From the NCBI RefSeq assembly GCF_003334355.1, contig NZ_QOWP01000007.1: a DNA stretch of 64,000 nt. One strand, written 5' to 3'. Every line of letters starts with the position of its first letter. The stretch's first letter is position 1. The translations under genes were made by a program, and so were the position numbers. Positions 2,139 to 60,110 of the stretch are shown piece by piece. This stretch comes from Escherichia coli (GTDB lineage: Bacteria > Pseudomonadota > Gammaproteobacteria > Enterobacterales > Enterobacteriaceae). The notes below the pieces were generated by a model that was given only the letters and a program-made list of their open reading frames with translations, did no database searches and was not told the DNA's origin.

Positions 2139-2598
2139 TCATGTACGAGCTAAATGTTACTCCGTTAAAATAAATTAGTAACAAACGCCCTATAACGTAC
2201 TGAAAATTATGCCTGTGATCTAGCGCCAAAAATCAGTATTTCGGCGTGAACTCGCAAAATATTAACGATTCAGCCGTGATAGTGGGATAAACACCTTAGA
2301 ACGCCGGATAAAGACTGATAATTGTCTTCGACGGTCGGGTAAAACGAGACATCGCCCCGGCACGAATCACTACTTAACATTAAATTAACTTATACAATTC
2401 AGTTGCTTCAGTAGTAATGATGCTGATACGGCTGTTTTTTAAGCATAGACGGTCATTTGAGCAGGATTAAAATTGGCTTAAGGAATGTGATATGAAAAAT
2501 GACGCAGACAGTTACACCGTTTAAATGCAATAATCAGCCACGTTTCTCGTTAATAACAATACCAGTACCTGGTTTGCGCAAGGCGAAGGATTATTTTT

Positions 2599-3543
2599 AT
2601 GAAGCTTAAGAACACCCTCCTGGCGTCGGCACTGCTTTCTGCTACGGCATTCTCCGTTAACGCAGCAACAGAACTGACACCGGAGCAAGCGGCAGCGGTT
2701 AAACCTTTTGACCGTGTAGTGGTTACCGGTCGTTTTAATGCTATTGGCGAAGCGGTGAAAGCCGTTTCTCGTCGCGCAGATAAAGAAGGTGCCGCCTCTT
2801 TTTATGTTGTCGACACTTCTGATTTTGGTAACAGCGGTAACTGGCGTGTGGTCGCTGACCTCTATAAAGCCGATGCTGAAAAAGCAGAAGAAACAAGTAA
2901 TCGCGTAATTAACGGTGTTGTCGAACTGCCGAAAGATCAGGCTGTTCTGATTGAACCGTTTGACACGGTCACCGTCCAGGGCTTCTATCGTAGCCAGCCA
3001 GAAGTCAATGATGCCATCACCAAAGCGGCAAAAGCGAAAGGTGCCTACTCTTTCTACATCGTTCGTCAAATCGATGCCAACCAGGGCGGCAACCAGCGTA
3101 TTACTGCATTCATCTATAAAAAAGATGCTAAGAAACGTATCGTCCAGAGCCCGGATGTGATCCCGGCAGATTCCGAAGCAGGACGTGCAGCTCTGGCTGC
3201 CGGTGGCGAAGCCGCGAAGAAAGTTGAGATCCCGGGTGTTGCGACTACCGCATCACCAAGTTCTGAAGTCGGTCGCTTCTTTGAAACCCAGTCATCAAAA
3301 GGCGGGCGTTACACCGTCACGCTCCCGGATGGCACTAAAGTCGAAGAACTGAACAAAGCGACCGCAGCGATGATGGTCCCGTTCGACAGCATCAAATTCT
3401 CTGGCAACTACGGCAACATGACCGAAGTCTCCTATCAGGTTGCGAAACGTGCCGCGAAGAAAGGTGCTAAGTATTACCACATCACCCGCCAGTGGCAGGA
3501 ACGTGGTAATAACCTGACCGTCAGCGCAGATCTGTATAAATAA
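2599..3543 (+). CDS. ydgH: periplasmic DUF1471-family protein YdgH, signal peptide present
   Basis: ORF track 314 aa; N-terminal signal peptide MKLKNTLLASALLSATAFSVNA; matches E. coli YdgH. Confidence 0.9.
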   Translation: MKLKNTLLASALLSATAFSVNAATELTPEQAAAVKPFDRVVVTGRFNAIGEAVKAVSRRADKEGAASFYVVDTSDFGNSGNWRVVADLYKADAEKAEETSNRVINGVVELPKDQAVLIEPFDTVTVQGFYRSQPEVNDAITKAAKAKGAYSFYIVRQIDANQGGNQRITAFIYKKDAKKRIVQSPDVIPADSEAGRAALAAGGEAAKKVEIPGVATTASPSSEVGRFFETQSSKGGRYTVTLPDGTKVEELNKATAAMMVPFDSIKFSGNYGNMTEVSYQVAKRAAKKGAKYYHITRQWQERGNNLTVSADLYK

Positions 3544-3728
3544 CTATTCAGTTACTCCTATAAGGCGGCTTGATGCCGCCTTTCGCATTTTTAGTCACAA
3601 ATTTCCCCGCGACCATTGCATGCAGACACATCTCTTCGTAAAATCCCGCGCTTCAGTGGCAAACTCCATTTTTATGCGTTTTGCCCTAATATTTATTCTT
3701 CTTATCACGTTTTAATCACTGGATATCG

Positions 3729-5111
3729 ATGGAAAAGAAACTGGGACTGAGCGCACTCACCGCGCTGGTATTAAGCTCAATGCTGGGCGCGGGTGTTTTC
3801 AGTCTGCCGCAAAATATGGCGGCAGTTGCCAGCCCGGCAGCACTGCTCATCGGCTGGGGTATTACTGGCGCTGGCATTTTATTGCTGGCCTTTGCCATGC
3901 TGATCCTCACGCGCATTCGTCCCGAACTTGACGGCGGTATCTTTACCTATGCCCGCGAAGGGTTTGGCGAGCTAATCGGCTTTTGTTCCGCATGGGGATA
4001 CTGGCTGTGCGCAGTCATCGCCAACGTCTCCTATCTGGTGATCGTTTTTTCCGCGTTAAGCTTTTTTACGGACACGCCGGAATTGCGCCTGTTTGGCGAT
4101 GGTAATACCTGGCAATCGATAGTCGGTGCATCGGCTTTATTGTGGATTGTTCACTTTTTGATCCTGCGCGGGGTGCAAACCGCTGCCAGCATTAACCTGG
4201 TGGCGACACTGGCAAAATTGTTGCCGCTGGGTCTGTTTGTTGTGCTGGCGATGATGATGTTCAAACTGGATACCTTCAAGCTCGACTTCACCGGACTTGC
4301 ACTTGGCGTACCCGTTTGGGAACAGGTGAAAAACACCATGCTGATCACCCTGTGGGTTTTCATTGGTGTGGAAGGTGCCGTGGTTGTTTCTGCGCGTGCG
4401 CGTAATAAACGTGATGTTGGCAAAGCGACACTGCTGGCGGTTCTCTCCGCTCTGGGCGTTTACTTGCTGGTAACGCTGCTTTCGCTGGGTGTGGTGGCAC
4501 GTCCTGAACTGGCTGAAATTCGTAACCCGTCAATGGCCGGTCTGATGGTGGAAATGATGGGACCATGGGGCGAAATCATCATCGCTGCCGGTTTGATCGT
4601 TTCCGTTTGCGGCGCGTACTTAAGCTGGACCATCATGGCAGCAGAAGTACCGTTCCTGGCCGCCACTCATAAAGCATTCCCGCGCATTTTTGCGCGCCAG
4701 AACGCACAAGCTGCGCCATCCGCCTCACTGTGGTTGACCAACATCTGCGTGCAAATTTGTCTGGTACTCATCTGGCTGACCGGTTCCGATTACAACACGT
4801 TGCTGACCATCGCCTCAGAAATGATTCTGGTGCCCTATTTCCTGGTCGGCGCGTTCTTGCTGAAAATCGCAACCCGTCCACTGCATAAAGCGGTAGGTGT
4901 CGGTGCCTGCATTTATGGCTTATGGTTATTGTACGCCTCTGGTCCAATGCACTTGCTGTTATCCGTTGTTCTGTATGCACCGGGGCTGCTGGTTTTCCTG
5001 TACGCGCGCAAAACGCATACCCATGATAATGTACTGAACCGTCAGGAAATGGTGCTGATTGGCATGCTGTTAATTGCCTCAGTTCCGGCGACCTGGATGC
5101 TGGTGGGATAA
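3729..5111 (+). CDS. ydgI: APC-family putative arginine:ornithine antiporter (ArcD homolog)
   Basis: ORF track 460 aa; polytopic membrane protein matching E. coli YdgI. Confidence 0.9.
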   Translation: MEKKLGLSALTALVLSSMLGAGVFSLPQNMAAVASPAALLIGWGITGAGILLLAFAMLILTRIRPELDGGIFTYAREGFGELIGFCSAWGYWLCAVIANVSYLVIVFSALSFFTDTPELRLFGDGNTWQSIVGASALLWIVHFLILRGVQTAASINLVATLAKLLPLGLFVVLAMMMFKLDTFKLDFTGLALGVPVWEQVKNTMLITLWVFIGVEGAVVVSARARNKRDVGKATLLAVLSALGVYLLVTLLSLGVVARPELAEIRNPSMAGLMVEMMGPWGEIIIAAGLIVSVCGAYLSWTIMAAEVPFLAATHKAFPRIFARQNAQAAPSASLWLTNICVQICLVLIWLTGSDYNTLLTIASEMILVPYFLVGAFLLKIATRPLHKAVGVGACIYGLWLLYASGPMHLLLSVVLYAPGLLVFLYARKTHTHDNVLNRQEMVLIGMLLIASVPATWMLVG

Positions 5112-5147
5112 CGTTCATCCCATCGTTGGATAGCAAAGGAGATAACG

Positions 5148-5870
5148 ATGGGTAAAACCCAGCCCTTGCCAATATTAATTACTGGCGGAGGTCGTCGCAT
5201 CGGCCTCGCCCTCGCATGGCATTTCATTAATCAAAAGCAACCGGTGATTGTCAGCTATCGGACACACTATCCAGCCATTGATGGACTGATTAATGCAGGT
5301 GCGCAGTGTATTCAGGCTGATTTTTCGACCAACGACGGTGTGATGGCGTTTGCCGATGAAGTACTAAAAAGCACCCATGGTCTGCGTGCTATTTTGCATA
5401 ACGCCAGTGCGTGGATGGCGGAAAAACCGGGTGCGCCACTGGCCGACGTACTGGCTTGCATGATGCAGATCCACGTTAATACCCCATACCTGCTCAACCA
5501 TGCGCTGGAAAGATTACTGCGTGGGCACGGACACGCCGCCAGCGATATCATTCACTTTACCGATTATGTGGTGGAGCGCGGTAGCGACAAACATATTGCG
5601 TATGCTGCAAGCAAAGCGGCACTGGATAATATGACCCGCTCGTTTGCCCGCAAGCTGGCACCGGAAGTGAAAGTGAATTCTATTGCGCCATCGCTGATCC
5701 TGTTTAATGAACATGATGATGCCGAATATCGACAACAGGCGCTGAATAAATCACTGATGAAAACCGCGCCTGGCGAGAAAGAAGTGATCGACCTGGTCGA
5801 TTACTTACTTACCAGTTGCTTTGTCACCGGACGCAGTTTCCCACTTGATGGCGGTCGTCATCTGCGTTAA
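5148..5870 (+). CDS. folM: dihydromonapterin reductase / alternative dihydrofolate reductase (SDR family)
   Basis: ORF track 240 aa; N-terminal ILITGGGRRIG Rossmann motif; matches FolM. Confidence 0.93.
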   Translation: MGKTQPLPILITGGGRRIGLALAWHFINQKQPVIVSYRTHYPAIDGLINAGAQCIQADFSTNDGVMAFADEVLKSTHGLRAILHNASAWMAEKPGAPLADVLACMMQIHVNTPYLLNHALERLLRGHGHAASDIIHFTDYVVERGSDKHIAYAASKAALDNMTRSFARKLAPEVKVNSIAPSLILFNEHDDAEYRQQALNKSLMKTAPGEKEVIDLVDYLLTSCFVTGRSFPLDGGRHLR

Positions 5871-6202
5871 TGCAGCTTTATCCAGCATATAATCAACACC
5901 CATGCGCTTATCCCCCAACACGCAACAGAACCAACAAAAGCGGCGGGCAAGCGCATCATTCCGGTGAAATACCACAGCGACACCAGGTAAACAAAATAGG
6001 GAATAATCGACCACATACTAAAAATGATGGTTGCGCGTAAGGCTTCAATGCCGCGTTCGCTGGCAACAATATAATGCGCGATAAGCGCAAAGGTCGGGAA
6101 AAGTGGAATCAGCCCGGCGATATAATAATTTTTCGTTTTTGCTAAAACACCAATCAACAGCACTACCAGCGCACCGAGCGCGGCTTTGATTACCAGCCCC
6201 AT
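5867..6202 (-). CDS. ydgC: GlpM-family inner membrane protein
   Basis: ORF track 111 aa, hydrophobic; overlaps the folM stop by 4 nt on the opposite strand. Confidence 0.88.
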   Translation of the reverse strand: MGLVIKAALGALVVLLIGVLAKTKNYYIAGLIPLFPTFALIAHYIVASERGIEALRATIIFSMWSIIPYFVYLVSLWYFTGMMRLPAAFVGSVACWGISAWVLIICWIKLH

Positions 6203-6257
6203 CTTTTTACCTTAACACTTCCATAACAAGTCATCAGTAGAATACCTGATGAAAACT

Positions 6258-6274
6258 TGTTTAGAAACGATTGA
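6258..6274 (+). promoter_or_regulatory. possible PhoP box (TGTTTA-N5-GATTGA) upstream of rstA
   Basis: Direct-repeat-like motif tgtttagaaacgattga about 60 nt upstream of the rstA start; rstA is a known PhoP-activated gene; second half-site is a weak match. Confidence 0.35.
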
Positions 6275-6330
6275 TAGTAAGTAAAAACAGCGCGGTGTAT
6301 TGTGACGTTTTTATATCTACCGTGAATGTT

Positions 6331-7050
6331 ATGAACACTATCGTATTTGTGGAAGATGATGCGGAAGTCGGTTCACTGATTGCCGCGTACCTGGCAAAAC
6401 ATGATATGCAGGTTACCGTAGAGCCGCGCGGCGACCAGGCCGAAGAAACCATTTTGCGAGAAAATCCGGATTTGGTGTTACTCGACATCATGCTACCAGG
6501 CAAGGACGGCATGACCATTTGTCGTGATTTACGCGCAAAGTGGTCTGGACCGATTGTTCTTCTAACCTCTCTCGATAGCGATATGAACCACATCCTGGCA
6601 CTGGAAATGGGTGCCTGCGACTATATTCTCAAAACGACGCCCCCTGCTGTTTTGCTAGCGCGTTTACGTTTGCATTTGCGTCAGAATGAGCAAGCCACAC
6701 TGACCAAAGGTCTTCAGGAAACGTCTCTGACTCCCTACAAAGCCCTGCATTTCGGCACGTTGACCATCGATCCCATCAACCGCGTAGTCACCCTGGCTAA
6801 CACTGAAATCTCGCTCTCGACAGCTGATTTCGAATTATTGTGGGAATTAGCTACCCATGCCGGGCAAATCATGGACCGCGATGCATTGCTGAAAAATTTA
6901 CGCGGCGTCAGTTATGACGGACTGGATCGTAGCGTGGACGTGGCTATTTCGCGGTTAAGAAAAAAACTACTCGATAACGCCGCAGAACCTTATCGCATTA
7001 AAACCGTGCGTAACAAAGGCTATCTTTTTGCGCCTCATGCATGGGAATAA
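6331..7050 (+). CDS. rstA: two-component response regulator RstA (OmpR family)
   Basis: ORF track 6271..7050; recognised start MNTIVFVEDD is 20 codons in, giving 239 aa; receiver plus winged-helix domains. Confidence 0.95.
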   Translation: MNTIVFVEDDAEVGSLIAAYLAKHDMQVTVEPRGDQAEETILRENPDLVLLDIMLPGKDGMTICRDLRAKWSGPIVLLTSLDSDMNHILALEMGACDYILKTTPPAVLLARLRLHLRQNEQATLTKGLQETSLTPYKALHFGTLTIDPINRVVTLANTEISLSTADFELLWELATHAGQIMDRDALLKNLRGVSYDGLDRSVDVAISRLRKKLLDNAAEPYRIKTVRNKGYLFAPHAWE

Positions 7051-7053
7051 GCG

Positions 7054-8355
7054 ATGAAAAAATTGTTTATCCAGTTTTACCTGTTATTGTTTGTCTGCTT
7101 CCTTGTGATGTCTCTGCTGGTTGGGCTGGTGTACAAATTTACCGCCGAACGCGCGGGCAAACAGTCGCTGGATGATTTGATGAACAGTTCGCTGTATCTG
7201 ATGCGCAGCGAATTGCGTGAGATCCCCCCACACGACTGGGGTAAGACGCTGAAAGAGATGGATTTAAATCTCTCTTTCGATCTGCGTGTCGAGCCACTGA
7301 GTAAATACCATCTTGATGATATTTCCATGCACCGACTGCGTGGCGGCGAAATTGTCGCCCTGGACGATCAGTACACGTTTTTGCAGCGTATCCCGCGCAG
7401 CCACTACGTGCTGGCAGTTGGTCCTGTTCCTTATCTTTATTACCTCCATCAAATGCGATTGCTGGATATCGCCCTGATCGCTTTTATTGCTATTTCCCTC
7501 GCCTTTCCGGTGTTTATCTGGATGCGTCCGCACTGGCAGGATATGTTAAAACTGGAAGCAGCGGCGCAACGATTTGGCGATGGGCATCTCAATGAACGTA
7601 TCCACTTTGATGAGGGTTCGAGCTTTGAACGACTTGGCGTCGCATTTAACCAGATGGCGGACAATATCAACGCCTTAATTGCCAGCAAAAAACAGCTTAT
7701 TGACGGTATCGCTCACGAACTGCGAACACCGTTAGTGCGCCTGCGTTATCGACTGGAGATGAGCGATAACCTGAGCGCCGCCGAATCCCAGGCGTTGAAT
7801 CGTGATATCAGTCAACTTGAAGCTTTAATTGAAGAGCTGCTGACTTATGCCCGACTCGATCGCCCACAAAACGAGCTTCATCTTAGCGAACCAGACCTGC
7901 CGTTGTGGCTGTCAACGCATCTGGCAGATATTCAGGCAGTAACGCCCGATAAAACGGTACGGATAAAAACGCTCATGCAAGGCCATTATGCGGCGTTGGA
8001 TATGCGCTTAATGGAGCGCGTGCTGGATAATTTGCTCAATAACGCCCTGCGCTACTGCCATTCAACGGTTGAAACCAGCCTGCTACTGTCGGGGAATAAA
8101 GCGACATTAATTGTTGAGGATGATGGCTCAGGGATTGCCCCAGAAAACCGCGAACATATCTTTGAACCTTTTGTTCGCCTCGATCCCAGCCGGGGTCGCT
8201 CAACCGGCGGCTGCGGGCTGGGACTGGCAATTGTCCACTCTATAGCACTGGCAATGGGCGGTACGGTTAATTGTGGCACCAGCGAACTGGGTGGTGCCCG
8301 CTTCTCGTTTAGCTGGCCGTTATGGCATAACATCCCGCAATTTACCTCTGCTTGA
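7054..8355 (+). CDS. rstB: two-component sensor histidine kinase RstB
   Basis: ORF track 433 aa; H-box GIAHELRTPL and the HATPase G-boxes are present; 3 nt after rstA. Confidence 0.95.
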   Translation: MKKLFIQFYLLLFVCFLVMSLLVGLVYKFTAERAGKQSLDDLMNSSLYLMRSELREIPPHDWGKTLKEMDLNLSFDLRVEPLSKYHLDDISMHRLRGGEIVALDDQYTFLQRIPRSHYVLAVGPVPYLYYLHQMRLLDIALIAFIAISLAFPVFIWMRPHWQDMLKLEAAAQRFGDGHLNERIHFDEGSSFERLGVAFNQMADNINALIASKKQLIDGIAHELRTPLVRLRYRLEMSDNLSAAESQALNRDISQLEALIEELLTYARLDRPQNELHLSEPDLPLWLSTHLADIQAVTPDKTVRIKTLMQGHYAALDMRLMERVLDNLLNNALRYCHSTVETSLLLSGNKATLIVEDDGSGIAPENREHIFEPFVRLDPSRGRSTGGCGLGLAIVHSIALAMGGTVNCGTSELGGARFSFSWPLWHNIPQFTSA

Positions 8356-8397
8356 CACTACGCGCACGGTGGTCAAGTCACCACCACTGTGCTATAA

Positions 8398-10760
<2,363 letters not shown>

Positions 10761-10873
10761 GACCTGCTCCTCACCTGATTAATTTTTTCTTTCTGTTTTG
10801 CTTTCGTTAAGCAACTTTTAGCTCACTTATTATTTACCATTTGATAACAAATGTTTGGTCTTTCGTGCCATGT

Positions 10874-10902
10874 AAAAAAACCGCCCCGAAGGGCGGCTCT
10901 GT
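10874..10902 (-). terminator. rho-independent terminator downstream of fumA
   Basis: GC hairpin ccgccccgaagggcgg; on the minus strand it is followed by a run of 7 U. Confidence 0.7.
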
Positions 10903-12549
10903 TTATTTCACACAGCGGGTGCATTGTGTGAGTTGTATCTGCTGGAAGAAGTCATTTCCTTTATCATCCACAAGGATAAACGCCGGGAAATCTTCCACTT
11001 CAATTTTCCAGATGGCTTCCATTCCCAGTTCCGGATATTCAACACATTCCAGGCTCTTAATACTTCCCTGCGCCAATACAGCGGCCGGACCACCGATACT
11101 GCCAAGGTAGAAGCCGCCGTGTTTTTTACAGGCATCCGTCACCTGCTGGCTGCGGTTGCCTTTCGCCAGCATGATCATACTTCCGCCCTGCGCTTGCAGT
11201 TGATCGACATAAGAATCCATCCGTCCGGCGGTCGTTGGGCCAAGAGAACCGGAGGCATAACCTTCCGGCGTTTTGGCCGGACCCGCGTAGTAAATCGGAT
11301 GATCTTTGATGTACTGCGGCAGCCCTTCACCGTTATCCATCCGCTCTTTCAGTTTGGCGTGAGCAATATCACGACCGACGATAATCGTGCCGTTAAGCGA
11401 TAAGCGTGTAGAAACGGGATACTGCGACAACTGTGCGAGGATCTCTTTCATCGGACGGTTAAGGTCAACGCGCACCGCTTCGCCTTCTCCCGCTTTGCGC
11501 AGCTCTTCCGGGATATATTTGCCTGGATTATGTTCCAGTTTTTCGATCCAGATCCCCTGACGGTTGATCTTCGCTTTGATATTACGGTCAGCAGAGCAGG
11601 AGACGCCCATACCGACCGGGCAGGATGCGCCGTGACGTGGCAGGCGAATCACGCGGATGTCGTGAGCGAAGTATTTACCACCAAACTGCGCACCCAGACC
11701 AAGATTTTGCGCTTCGATCAGCAATTCTTTTTCCAGTTCCACATCGCGGAACGCCTGACCGTGCTCATTCCCTTCCGTTGGCAGTTCATCATAGTATTTC
11801 GCGGAAGCCAGTTTCACCGTTTTAAGGTTCATTTCTGCAGAAGTTCCACCAATAACGAACGCAATATGATACGGAGGACAGGCCGCCGTACCCAGCGTGC
11901 GCATCTTCTCAACCAGGTAATTTTTCAGTTTCCCCGGCGTCAGTAACGCTTTGGTTTCCTGATAGAGATACGTCTTGTTTGCCGAACCACCACCTTTGGC
12001 GATACAGAGGAATTTGTATTCGTCGCCATCAACGGCATAAAGATCGATCTGCGCTGGCAGATTGGTGCCGGTATTCACTTCTTTATACATATCCAGCGGC
12101 GCGTTTTGCGAGTAGCGCAGATTATCTTCGATATAAGTGTTATAGACACCGCGCGCCAGCGCCGCTTCATCACCACCACCGGTCCATACACGCTGCCCTT
12201 TTTTACCAACAATAATCGCGGTGCCGGTATCCTGACAGGTTGGCAGAACGCCTTTCGCCGCGATGTCGGAGTTACGCAGGAATTGCAGCGCCACATATTT
12301 ATCATTTTCGCTGGCCTCCGGGTCACGCAGAATGTCGGCCACCTGTTGTTGGTGCGCCGGACGCAGCATGAACGACGCATCATGAAACGCCTGGCGCGCC
12401 AACAGAGTTAACGCTTCGGGTGCGACTTTCAAAATCTCCTGCCCTTCAAATTCAGATACGCTAACGTGTTCGCTGGTTAGCAGGTAATACTCAGTATCAT
12501 CTTTTTTGAGTGGAAAAGGAGCCTGATAATGAAAGGGTTTGTTTGACAT
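10903..12549 (-). CDS. fumA: fumarate hydratase class I, Fe-S dependent (fumarase A)
   Basis: ORF track 548 aa; full-length match to FumA. Confidence 0.96.
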
Positions 12550-28480: not shown

Positions 28481-28722
28481 GTCATTGCCTCTCATTGAAG
28501 TATGATGGCTATTTGACACTATCCTTTACCCACGCTCAACAGTTTAATAACCTGCCAGCAATAAGGGATGTTGTTTAACTTAAGTCAAAAAAATAGCGAA
28601 TTTTCCAACGACAAAAGCTAAATATCGCAAAAACCTCAGTAAAAATCTTGCTGGAGCTATTATTGCTAAGTAACATTTACCCCCTGAAGTTAATGGATCA
28701 ATCAAGAGAGATGTGGGCTGTA

Positions 28723-28848
28723 ATGAATCGTCTTATTGAATTAACAGGTTGGATCGTTCTTGTCGTTTCAGTCATTCTTCTTGGCGTGGCGAGTCACATT
28801 GACAACTATCAGCCACCTGAACAGAGTGCTTCGGTACAACACAAGTAA
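28723..28848 (+). CDS. blr: small membrane protein Blr (41 aa; beta-lactam resistance / divisome-associated)
   Basis: Within ORF track 28648..28848; MNRLIELTGWIVLVVSVILLGVASHIDNYQPPEQSASVQHK matches Blr; single transmembrane helix. Confidence 0.8.
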   Translation: MNRLIELTGWIVLVVSVILLGVASHIDNYQPPEQSASVQHK

Positions 28849-29120
28849 GCTCTGCACTTGTGGAGCGACATGCTGCCCGTCCGGGTGCATGTTTTCACTT
28901 GTCGGATATTAAACCAGGAATTTATTATCTTGTTCGATGTTGTTGGTGATTGTCAGGGATAGTAAAGCGCGTTACTCTTTTCAGAGCAGTTTTTCATCCC
29001 TGAATATTTGCCATCAGCGCATTCTTATTATTGTAATAACACAAGCGTTCACTTTTGGTGAAATTTTATCATCACTAATAATACCTACCCCTTTGGTATT
29101 AATTATTTTATGGACCTTTT

Positions 29121-30520: not shown

Positions 30521-33121
<2,601 letters not shown>

Positions 33122-59960: not shown

Positions 59961-60110
59961 TTGCCTGAAGCGCTACGCTTATCAGGCCTACGCGGATCAT
60001 CGATGTAGGTCGGATAAGGCACTCGCCGCATCCGACAAGCGCTGCATGATACGACGCCTAACGCGTCTTTTCATGTCAACGCGGATGAGTCGTTAACACC
60101 GCATCCGGCA
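59961..60110. repeat. cluster of three REP elements downstream of sodB
   Basis: REP units gcctgaagcgctacgcttatcaggcctac, gtaggtcggataaggcactcgccgcatccgaca and gcggatgagtcgttaacaccgcatccggca. Confidence 0.85.

Follow-up and report, generated by a model that had tools for sequence, protein, structure and literature searches.

YdgI of Escherichia coli, a core APA-family transporter and ArcD paralogue without linkage to the arginine deiminase pathway

ArcD, AdiC and related transporters

The prototype of the ArcD transporters that are encoded in arc operons and belong to the basic amino acid/polyamine antiporter (APA) family is ArcD of Pseudomonas aeruginosa. The arc-operon ArcDs used for the comparisons made here are those of Mesorhizobium, Rhizobium, Azospirillum, Staphylococcus haemolyticus and Cedecea. 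These proteins share with YdgI of Escherichia coli the family model TIGR00905, the 12-helix AdiC-like fold, 42–50% identity over the full length and the residues that contact arginine. In contrast to YdgI, they score approximately 100 bits higher on the model TIGR03810, lie outside of the clade formed by YdgI and carry Gly, Ser and Gly at three positions adjacent to the substrate pocket at which YdgI has S16, C94 and A98. The closest solved structure to YdgI is the E. coli and Salmonella antiporter AdiC, which exchanges arginine for agmatine (PDB 3L1L, 3OB6, 5J4I/5J4N, 3NCY). The G-x-G motif in TM1, the Trp gate, Glu208, the Trp293 platform and Asn101 of AdiC are conserved in YdgI, although the two proteins are only 26–27% identical and no decarboxylase gene accompanies ydgI. 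Alanine replaces S26, S289 and S357 of AdiC in YdgI, and tyrosine replaces M104, as in the ArcDs. A further transporter that carries the name arcD is encoded by the arc operon of E. coli. It belongs to the YfcC family, is presumed to be the arginine/ornithine exchanger of the E. coli arginine deiminase (ADI) pathway and shares the gene name with YdgI without being homologous to it. In E. coli Nissle the arc operon is functional, and its transporter is called "arcD" in the Nissle literature (PMC10659395). Lactococcus ArcD1 and ArcD2 were considered as YfcC-like proteins as well, which was wrong, as ArcD2 belongs to the APC superfamily (PMC7818446).

By whole sequence, the nearest relatives of YdgI are APA transporters encoded directly downstream of a gene of the homocysteine S-methyltransferase (HMT) family, PF02574. 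They occur in Acinetobacter, Aeromonas, Pseudoalteromonas and Pasteurellaceae (Rodentibacter), are 53–59% identical to YdgI and have the "SSM" motif in TM1 and C94 in common with it. Their genes are tightly paired with the methyltransferase gene, whereas the ydgI loci of Enterobacterales contain no methyltransferase gene. These transporters would be functional analogues of MmuP/MmuM. For YdgI itself, a study from 2025 describes the physiological function as still unestablished (PMC12003319); the orphan status of ydgI is already documented, and the gene counts among those E. coli core genes whose function is still to be proven.

The ydgI locus and its transcription

The window analysed here is a 64 kb stretch of E. 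coli DNA that is 99.4–99.9% identical to a K-12-derived chromosome over its full length, except for one small region (blr). An apparent 388-bp insertion relative to this reference is merely the blr region, which is missing from the reference. The ydgI gene lies at 3729..5111 on the plus strand, where it starts with ATG and encodes 460 amino acids, the end coordinate including the stop codon. It is 100% identical to the gene that numerous E. coli genomes annotate as "ydgI: amino acid permease". Upstream, ydgH (DUF1471 family; 2599..3543, plus strand) forms a separate transcription unit; downstream follow folM, encoding dihydromonapterin reductase (5148..5870, plus strand), ydgC (5867-6202, minus strand) and then rstAB and tus, according to the annotation of the identical region. 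Neither arginine deiminase nor catabolic ornithine carbamoyltransferase nor carbamate kinase is annotated anywhere in the 64 kb window. Hence the sequence-only reading of this DNA was right about the open reading frame, about the neighbours ydgH, folM and ydgC, and about the absence of arcA, arcB and arcC near ydgI. The gene is present in 5,424 of 5,426 complete E. coli genomes and therewith is a core gene; its dN/dS of 0.008–0.06 against other Enterobacteriaceae shows that it is a functional gene under strong purifying selection. The order pntA-ydgH-ydgI is conserved over the Enterobacterales in a synteny scan. The gene appears to have been inherited vertically at a fixed chromosomal site (pntA-ydgH-ydgI-...-rstAB), as a core and strongly constrained component.

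An intrinsic terminator of ydgH was predicted by a terminator scan at 3562..3592 on the plus strand, where a run of T comes after a GC-rich stem of 8 bp (AAGGCGGCTTGATGCCGCCTT then TCGCATTTTT), and it is expected to part the transcription of ydgH from that of ydgI. The same arrangement of ydgH and ydgI, with separate promoters, was described in Serratia (bioRxiv 10.1101/2021.04.16.440252). The promoter and the 5' UTR of ydgI are presumed to lie in the upstream region at 3593..3728 (plus strand), in which no match to the sigma-70 consensus was found. An Rfam scan of positions 2400-6400 (E<=1) returned no relevant riboswitch upstream of ydgI, which rules out a lysine or arginine riboswitch as its leader. 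The whole window was moreover searched for the ARG-box core TGAATWWWWATTCA with up to three mismatches allowed. The 20 matches do not exceed the number in shuffled sequences (mean 25.8); three of them, with 2–3 mismatches each, lie in or at the edge of the ydgH-ydgI spacer, and these do not show the tandem 21-bp geometry. Upstream of ydgI, the weak ARG-box-like 14-mers are located at 3584-3597 and 3686-3699. In the literature, ydgI is part of the ArgR regulon as defined by binding sites, yet it is absent from the Arginine iModulon (PMC13401006). The listing in the ArgR regulon is a hint in favour of basic amino acid transport by YdgI; against it count that ydgI expression does not follow this iModulon and that the upstream sites are weak.

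Downstream, the spacer between ydgI and folM (5112..5147, plus strand) comprises 36 nt with the Shine-Dalgarno sequence AAAGGAG, and the terminator scan found no terminator-like site in it. Because of this short spacer with a Shine-Dalgarno sequence and without a terminator, ydgI and folM are likely co-transcribed in Enterobacteriaceae, where folM follows approximately 40–60 nt 3' of ydgI at most orthologous loci. In Yersiniaceae, Erwiniaceae and Morganellaceae folM is displaced or absent at the ydgI loci of the synteny scan, and the linkage is therefore limited to certain lineages. Despite the probable shared transcript, no functional connection between both genes is drawn here.

Family, pathway linkage and substrate pocket

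YdgI scores 613.7 bits on TIGR00905 (cut-off 409.05) with residues 3–459 covered, which places it in the APA family (TC 2.A.3.2). Its best sequence match in the PDB is AdiC (E 1e-31). The AlphaFold2 model is all-helical (pLDDT 86.5, pTM 0.86), and the best Foldseek matches to this model are AdiC, BasC, GkApcT and ApcT with TM-scores of 0.73–0.89, AdiC being matched with a TM-score of 0.83–0.89 and an rmsd of 2.7–3.0 Å. The predicted structure is that of a 12-helix transporter with LeuT/APC fold and assigns YdgI to the APC superfamily, whose hallmarks are about 12 transmembrane helices, a 5+5 inverted-repeat architecture and unwound stretches in TM1 and TM6. On TIGR03810, the equivalog model for arginine-ornithine antiporters, YdgI reaches 507.7 bits and remains below the cut-off of 591, a strict threshold that many other representative homologues also miss. 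The scores on this model form a gradient from the arc-linked proteins (609.4 and 610.5) over Vibrio (561) and YdgI (508) to the methyltransferase-linked proteins (478–481). The close resemblance to ArcD seen in the sequence-only reading accordingly stands as far as the 42–50% identity to the arc-operon ArcDs is concerned, while the equivalog cut-off is not reached.

The arc operon is present in 918 of the 5,426 complete E. coli genomes, so that approximately 83% of the genomes are devoid of it. A tblastn search of plasmids and a subsequent megablast search located it, whereas a distant blastn search with arcD-arcA DNA of Serratia fonticola gave no match to it. It resides either on plasmids or in a chromosomal island between argI/yjgK and pyrL, and both variants have the order arcA-arcC-arcB-YfcC family-ArgR-like. 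The transporter of these operons matches NF008611 ("putative basic amino acid antiporter YfcC") and is not homologous to YdgI; it is accessory in the species, while YdgI is core. At all 43 Enterobacterales loci sampled, the roughly 10 kb around the ydgI orthologue are free of arcA, arcB and arcC. The same neighbourhood scan detected ArcD-arcABC linkage at seven other loci and is therefore able to show such a linkage. A single assembly of Cedecea sulfonylureivorans contains both a YdgI orthologue (87% identical to YdgI) and an APA-type ArcD embedded in an arc operon (49% identical). Because of the core distribution of ydgI as opposed to the accessory arc operon, the YfcC-family transporter that the operon brings along, the absence of arc genes from all 43 loci, the two Cedecea proteins and the position of YdgI in the tree described below, YdgI is a paralogue of the pathway-linked ArcDs and not the antiporter of an ADI pathway. 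This supports the suggestion of the sequence-only reading that the role of YdgI differs from what the name ArcD implies.

In a neighbour-joining tree (100 bootstraps; deep branches poorly resolved), the YdgI proteins of Enterobacterales form a clade with 100% bootstrap support. This clade groups with the HMT-linked clade (79%), also when the Vibrionaceae clade is added (79%), and the arc-linked ArcD clades fall outside of this grouping. A gammaproteobacterial paralogue lineage comprising Enterobacterales YdgI, the Vibrionaceae clade and the HMT-linked clade has probably split from the ADI-operon ArcDs. Other members of the family are linked to genes for dimethylargininase, histidine decarboxylase or Orn/Lys/Arg decarboxylase. 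The neighbours of the Vibrionaceae proteins and of paralogue 2 in Aeromonas (RarD, a response regulator, SulA-like and valine-catabolism-type genes) are uninformative. The homologue of V. metschnikovii is flanked by mdh and ispB, with no arc genes; a V. fluvialis contig has the same upstream genes and stops directly after the homologue. The ArcD studied in V. fluvialis was considered as the Vibrionaceae homologue of YdgI and was dropped, as the published gene order does not fit either.

The substrate pocket was compared at 21 positions around the substrate site of AdiC, using an alignment to AdiC at 26–27% identity. The positions include A96, C97 and S357 of AdiC as pocket residues. The arginine-contacting residues of AdiC were taken from PMC4970712. 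In this alignment the pocket of YdgI matches that of the arc-linked ArcDs at 17 of the 21 positions, that of the HMT-linked clade at 14–15 and that of HdcC at 12. N99 (N101 in AdiC), W209 (W202), I212 (I205), E215 (E208), W300 (W293) and A362 of YdgI are the residues found in operon-linked ArcDs. The HMT-linked clade carries four changes, N99 to Ile/Val, I212 to Thr/Ser, A296 to Ser and A362 to Ser, none of which occurs in YdgI. The HMT-linked clade probably transports a different substrate, whereas YdgI, as judged from the alignment, retains an ArcD-type arginine pocket. A different substrate pair, considered probable from the DNA sequence at first, thereby does not find support: at the level of aligned residues, the pocket of YdgI corresponds to that of the arc-linked ArcDs and differs from that of its HMT-linked sisters.

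Proposed function of YdgI and its significance

The family and fold of YdgI, its paralogy to the ADI-operon ArcDs without pathway linkage, the purifying selection and the aligned pocket residues are established here, while we infer, with about even confidence, that YdgI is a carrier for pathway-independent exchange or uptake of basic amino acids. As the ArcD-type pocket is kept, binding of L-arginine and related basic amino acids such as ornithine and lysine would be most likely. Transport might proceed as substrate:substrate exchange or as facilitated uptake and might serve the general traffic of basic amino acids apart from any ADI pathway, and YdgI might also act weakly on neutral amino acids, for instance threonine. 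We know of no pathway in E. coli K-12 that leads from imported arginine to exportable ornithine, and a strict 1:1 arginine/ornithine exchange would therefore lack an obvious metabolic driver. Among the fitness genes listed from transposon-insertion screens, ydgI appears for Salmonella grown in egg white (PMC11250598) and, as a candidate, for uropathogenic E. coli during systemic infection (PMC3855560). A ydgI mutant of Proteus mirabilis had no arginine-related phenotype, which counts against a role in arginine transport (PMC4234256). So do the three pocket-adjacent differences from the arc-linked ArcDs, the probably different substrate of the HMT-linked relatives and the low identity of the AdiC alignment behind the pocket comparison.

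Alternatively, YdgI could carry another cationic amino acid derivative, such as S-methylmethionine, which its HMT-linked sister clade probably transports, or else citrulline, a precursor of polyamines or a methylated arginine; the name ArcD would then mislead on both the substrate and the role. This is suggested by the PF02574 gene next to its closest non-enterobacterial relatives, by its grouping with these in the tree, by the linkage of other relatives to dimethylargininase and decarboxylase genes, which indicates shifts of specificity within the family, and by the three lineage-specific changes near the pocket. However, the pocket of the HMT-linked proteins is derived at four positions, at all of which YdgI has the ArcD residues, and no methyltransferase or other travelling enzyme gene was found at any Enterobacterales ydgI locus examined. 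We consider this alternative unlikely. The same doubt applies to its wider form, according to which YdgI and its Vibrionaceae relatives would constitute a distinct APA subfamily for a cationic derivative other than arginine and ornithine, with the HMT-linked sister clade as S-methylmethionine-type importers.

That YdgI is physiologically a carrier of neutral amino acids (threonine, serine or alanine) appears quite improbable. In multicopy, ydgI compensates for a defect in threonine uptake, and the resulting uptake of threonine, a neutral amino acid, was directly measured and is the only measured activity of YdgI (PMC12003319). Moreover, how strongly alanine and further amino acids are bound varies widely among the ArcD-type exchangers of Lactococcus lactis (PMC7818446). 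On the other hand, the uptake was assayed at 800 μM threonine with a multicopy plasmid, the authors termed the route "non-physiological" and the deletion of ydgI had no phenotype (PMC12003319), and the Asn that contacts the guanidinium group is conserved along with the Trp platform, as in AdiC and ArcD.

We regard it as highly improbable that YdgI is a genuine arginine:ornithine antiporter of an ADI pathway encoded elsewhere in the genome. The ArcD-type pocket, the identity to operon-linked ArcDs and the approximately 17% of E. coli genomes that bear an arc operon at another site would be in line with such a role. Nevertheless, these operons supply their own YfcC-family transporter, ydgI is maintained under strong purifying selection also in the arc-less genomes, the arc-linked copy of the coexisting Cedecea paralogues is the one that is not YdgI, and YdgI falls outside of the arc-linked clades and below the TIGR03810 cut-off.

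A tie of YdgI to folM and tetrahydromonapterin metabolism, for example by a pterin-related or aromatic amino acid substrate, has a next to negligible probability: although the terminator-free 36-nt spacer and its retention in most Enterobacteriaceae would fit, other open reading frames displace folM in Serratia, Hafnia and Edwardsiella, folM is missing from the locus in Yersinia, Erwinia, Pantoea, Photorhabdus and Xenorhabdus, the sister clades of YdgI do not have this linkage, and pterin transport is not known in the APA family.

The lack of linkage to the ADI pathway bears on how the gene is annotated. Today, ydgI is widely annotated as the arginine:ornithine antiporter "arcD", including in KEGG-style pathway calls, and the KO K03758 was one of four arc markers in a microbiome survey (PMC10659395). 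The presumed transporter of the E. coli ADI pathway is a different protein of the YfcC family, and the label "arcD" on ydgI should not count as evidence of an ADI pathway. If YdgI carried another cationic derivative after all, a whole gammaproteobacterial lineage would be mis-named "ArcD" in the databases, and the HMT-coupled sister clade would be a previously unrecognised S-methylmethionine-type importer. For ydgI, the outcome refines the annotation and does not overturn current knowledge; YdgI remains plausible as a carrier of basic amino acids, and such a function may explain the fitness hits in Salmonella in egg white and in uropathogenic E. coli.

The ydgI gene and its chromosomal setting

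The gene ydgI (3729–5111, plus strand) is a single open reading frame of 460 codons with an ATG start, and it lies in the collinear order pntBA, ydgH, ydgI, folM, ydgC (opposite strand), rstAB, tus, fumCB, manA ... purR, punC, in which the class I gene of fumCB carries the name fumB in the reference annotation. Aligned over its whole length, the window is 99.4–99.9% identical to the K-12-derived strain ER1709 and thus represents Escherichia coli chromosome, though not K-12 itself. By collinear annotation, arginine deiminase, catabolic ornithine carbamoyltransferase and carbamate kinase are all absent from the 64-kb window. The sequence-only reading, which described ydgI as an ArcD-like gene without arc genes nearby, was therefore correct as to reading frame, neighbours and arc-free surroundings. 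By megablast, ydgI was found in 5,424 of 5,426 complete E. coli genomes, always at ≥95% identity and in many at 100%, annotated as 'ydgI: amino acid permease'. Its dN/dS of 0.008–0.06 against other Enterobacteriaceae shows that the gene is constrained and functional.

Some differences from ER1709 lie elsewhere in the window. ER1709 lacks the blr region (28522–28909), which 5401 of 5426 genomes contain; the deletion therefore belongs to the reference. A second stretch missing from ER1709, of about 59 bp (about 60040–60098), lies between sodB and ydhP. The interior of rsxC (32747–33075) can be aligned with the reference in more than one register (230–329 bp at 89–91% identity), which indicates a tandem repeat differing between strains in copy number or phase.

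A strong intrinsic terminator 3' of ydgH (3562–3582 followed by a T run), detected by terminator scan, implies that ydgI has its own promoter region, as was likewise concluded for Serratia ydgI (bioRxiv 10.1101/2021.04.16.440252). The spacer between ydgI and folM measures only 36 nt and holds a Shine-Dalgarno sequence; the scan found no terminator in it, and read-through from ydgI into folM is likely judging by this arrangement. A gSELEX peak of RpoN holoenzyme was reported in the same spacer (PMC8743547). The convergent 3' ends of folM (plus strand) and ydgC (minus strand) overlap by 4 nt (5867–5870), which leaves neither gene terminator space outside the coding sequence of its partner. Upstream of ydgI no riboswitch was found, and ARG-box-like sequences in the ydgH–ydgI spacer are weak; a 2026 study places ydgI in the ArgR regulon as defined by binding sites, yet outside the Arginine iModulon (PMC13401006).

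Arginine deiminase operons and ydgI-like genes

The arginine deiminase (ADI) pathway, searched for with an arginine deiminase query in tblastn and then by megablast over 5,426 genomes, is encoded in 918 of these E. coli genomes by two operon variants about 77% identical in DNA across arcA–arcC. The plasmid type (≥99% identical to the query; L014 6995–12237) is carried on IncF-type plasmids with IS66 and IS1 elements on its flanks, and the chromosomal type (about 77% identical; L015 7001–12255, UM146 chromosome) sits between argI/yjgK and pyrL. Both share the order arcA, arcC, arcB, a YfcC-family transporter and an ArgR-like regulator; the same operon has been shown to work in E. coli Nissle, whose transporter gene goes by the name 'arcD' (PMC10659395). 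This YfcC-family transporter is no relative of YdgI. Hence the pathway brings a carrier of its own, and ydgI is kept in the about 83% of E. coli genomes from which the pathway is absent.

A pattern scan, in which each GTDB species was represented by a single genome, gave 80 loci with flanks of up to 10 kb on each side, which were scanned with reference ArcA, ArcB, ArcC and other proteins. None of the 43 Enterobacterales orthologues (67–99% identity to YdgI) has arc genes within these flanks, and where the flanks allow, they share the pntA-ydgH-ydgI-...-rstAB context, Budvicia excepted. The orthologue of Morganella psychrotolerans (L069 10001–11387) matches in two frames (query residues 1–113 and 112–459), indicating a frameshift that may reflect a pseudogene or an assembly error. 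Arc-linked homologues are found in six alphaproteobacterial arcD-arcA-arcB-arcC operons (49–51% identity) and in Cedecea sulfonylureivorans, where an ArcD of the basic amino acid/polyamine antiporter (APA) type (49%) lies within arcB-arcA-arcC-arcB-[ArcD]-argR (L087); the same assembly also has a true YdgI orthologue (L025, 87% identical). This Cedecea cluster (L087 4401–12034) is of enterobacterial type, with an ArcA 90% identical to E. coli plasmid ArcA, two ornithine carbamoyltransferase genes and the APA-type ArcD where the E. coli operons have their YfcC-family transporter.

Ten Vibrionaceae loci (50–58%) are free of arc genes. The YdgI-like gene of V. metschnikovii is flanked by mdh and ispB, at a distance of two genes from argR (L099 7426–12686), and a 47-codon reading frame ends directly 5' of it; a V. 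fluvialis contig (L098) has the same upstream genes and stops right after the YdgI-like gene. Five loci of a second Aeromonas paralogue (50–51%) also have no arc genes, and in the three with enough upstream sequence (L079, L083, L092, about 4700–11430) the paralogue directly follows, on the same strand, a gene set resembling valine catabolism: an acyl-CoA dehydrogenase, a pair of enoyl-CoA hydratases, a 3-hydroxyisobutyrate dehydrogenase and an SDR. Three Pasteurellaceae loci without a methyltransferase gene (49–50%) have uninformative neighbours. Matches in a plasmid database comprise arcD-arcABC operons in Mesorhizobium, Rhizobium and Azospirillum, arcA-arcD in Staphylococcus haemolyticus, arcD-arcA in Serratia fonticola (L010 6983–9802), an APA member after dimethylargininase on a Photobacterium plasmid (L013 5167–7404), the histidine decarboxylase-linked HdcC, and two APA members flanking an Orn/Lys/Arg decarboxylase on a Providencia plasmid (L102 972–6446). 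In Metapseudomonas resinovorans (L096 4099–8428) and, going by its annotated genes, on the Serratia fonticola plasmid, an APA member is paired with an ADI-family enzyme while ornithine carbamoyltransferase and carbamate kinase are missing. The enzyme-paired APA members suggest several uncharacterised substrate/product exchange modules.

Relationship to ArcD and the substrate pocket

On the APA-family model TIGR00905 YdgI scores 613.7 bits, above the cut-off of 409; on TIGR03810, the equivalog model for arginine-ornithine antiporters, it scores 507.7 bits, below the cut-off of 591. Its best solved relative is the arginine:agmatine antiporter AdiC, both by sequence (E 1e-31 across residues 4–426) and by fold (Foldseek TM-score 0.83–0.89, AlphaFold2 model, pLDDT 86.5). 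In a neighbour-joining tree (448 well-occupied columns, 100 bootstraps, AdiC outgroup) the Enterobacterales YdgI clade received 100% bootstrap support, its union with a methyltransferase-linked sister clade 79%, and the group further including Vibrionaceae 79%; all arc-linked sequences fall outside this group, with deeper nodes lacking resolution. The ranking of TIGR03810 scores parallels the tree order (arc-linked 609–610, second Aeromonas paralogue 602, Vibrio 561, YdgI 508, methyltransferase-linked 478–481 bits), and together they identify YdgI as a paralogue, not an orthologue, of pathway ArcD. The second Aeromonas paralogue, though not near arc genes, clears the TIGR03810 cut-off.

The sister clade (12 loci in Acinetobacter, Aeromonas, Pseudoalteromonas and Rodentibacter, 53–59% identity) lies directly 3' of a homocysteine S-methyltransferase family gene assigned to PF02574 and scoring under the MmuM equivalog cut-off. 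This two-gene unit (L007 6105–8323; L063, L064, L067, L070–L073, L078, L080, L086, L093, L095, about 9100–11400 in most) is conserved across the four genera with a gap of 6–13 nt in most loci and about 650 nt in Rodentibacter, and its transporter has a changed pocket. By analogy, it looks like an MmuP/MmuM-type unit for uptake of S-methylmethionine or a similar methyl donor, using another transporter family. No description of this pairing was met in the papers cited here, which were read with other questions in view.

Substrate-site residues of AdiC were transferred to the homologues through the alignment, and 21 positions were compared. A96, C97 and S357 of AdiC were included in this site on the basis of its crystal structures. 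In AdiC, Trp293 forms a cation-pi platform, Asn101 hydrogen-bonds the side chain, and Asn22, Ile23, Ser26, Gly27, Trp202 and Ile205 make backbone contacts, with Glu208 and Tyr93 also involved (PMC4970712). YdgI presents Y91, N99 (AdiC N101), Y102, W209 (W202), I212 (I205), E215 (E208), A296, W300 (W293), T301, A304, Y355, A362 (S357) and Y370, all invariant across 18 Enterobacterales sequences. Its pocket matches Vibrionaceae at 19/21 positions, operon-linked ArcDs at 17/21, the methyltransferase-linked clade at 14–15/21 and HdcC at 12/21. It differs from operon ArcDs solely at S16 (G), C94 (S), A98 (G) and variable position 21, whereas in the sister clade N is replaced by I/V, I by T/S, and both A296 and A362 by S. 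Most parsimoniously, YdgI would have kept the ancestral ArcD-type specificity, which would have been altered in the sister clade.

Role and substrate of YdgI

The earlier proposal of a different substrate pair or role holds for the role: YdgI is very probably not the antiporter of the ADI pathway. It receives no support from the pocket as to the substrate, for which arginine or other basic amino acids would be the best guess. No published transport assay of YdgI with basic amino acids was found in the literature. In a 2025 study a defect in threonine uptake was suppressed by multicopy ydgI, one of eight such suppressors, and the uptake of threonine was measurable; the physiological function of ydgI was described as not established, similarity to P. 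aeruginosa ArcD being the sole clue (PMC12003319). A Proteus mirabilis ydgI mutant was unimpaired in arginine-dependent survival (PMC4234256). In transposon-insertion screens, Salmonella was reported to need ydgI in egg white (PMC11250598), ydgI was listed among candidate genes for fitness of uropathogenic E. coli during systemic infection (PMC3855560), and a Klebsiella screen gave it as a hit associated with the capsule (PMC6247091). Since the literature already documents ydgI as an orphan, the gene poses an ordinary, known question of annotation and does not represent a new system. The best combined explanation, to which we assign an even chance, is that YdgI carries basic amino acids, arginine among them, independently of the ADI pathway.
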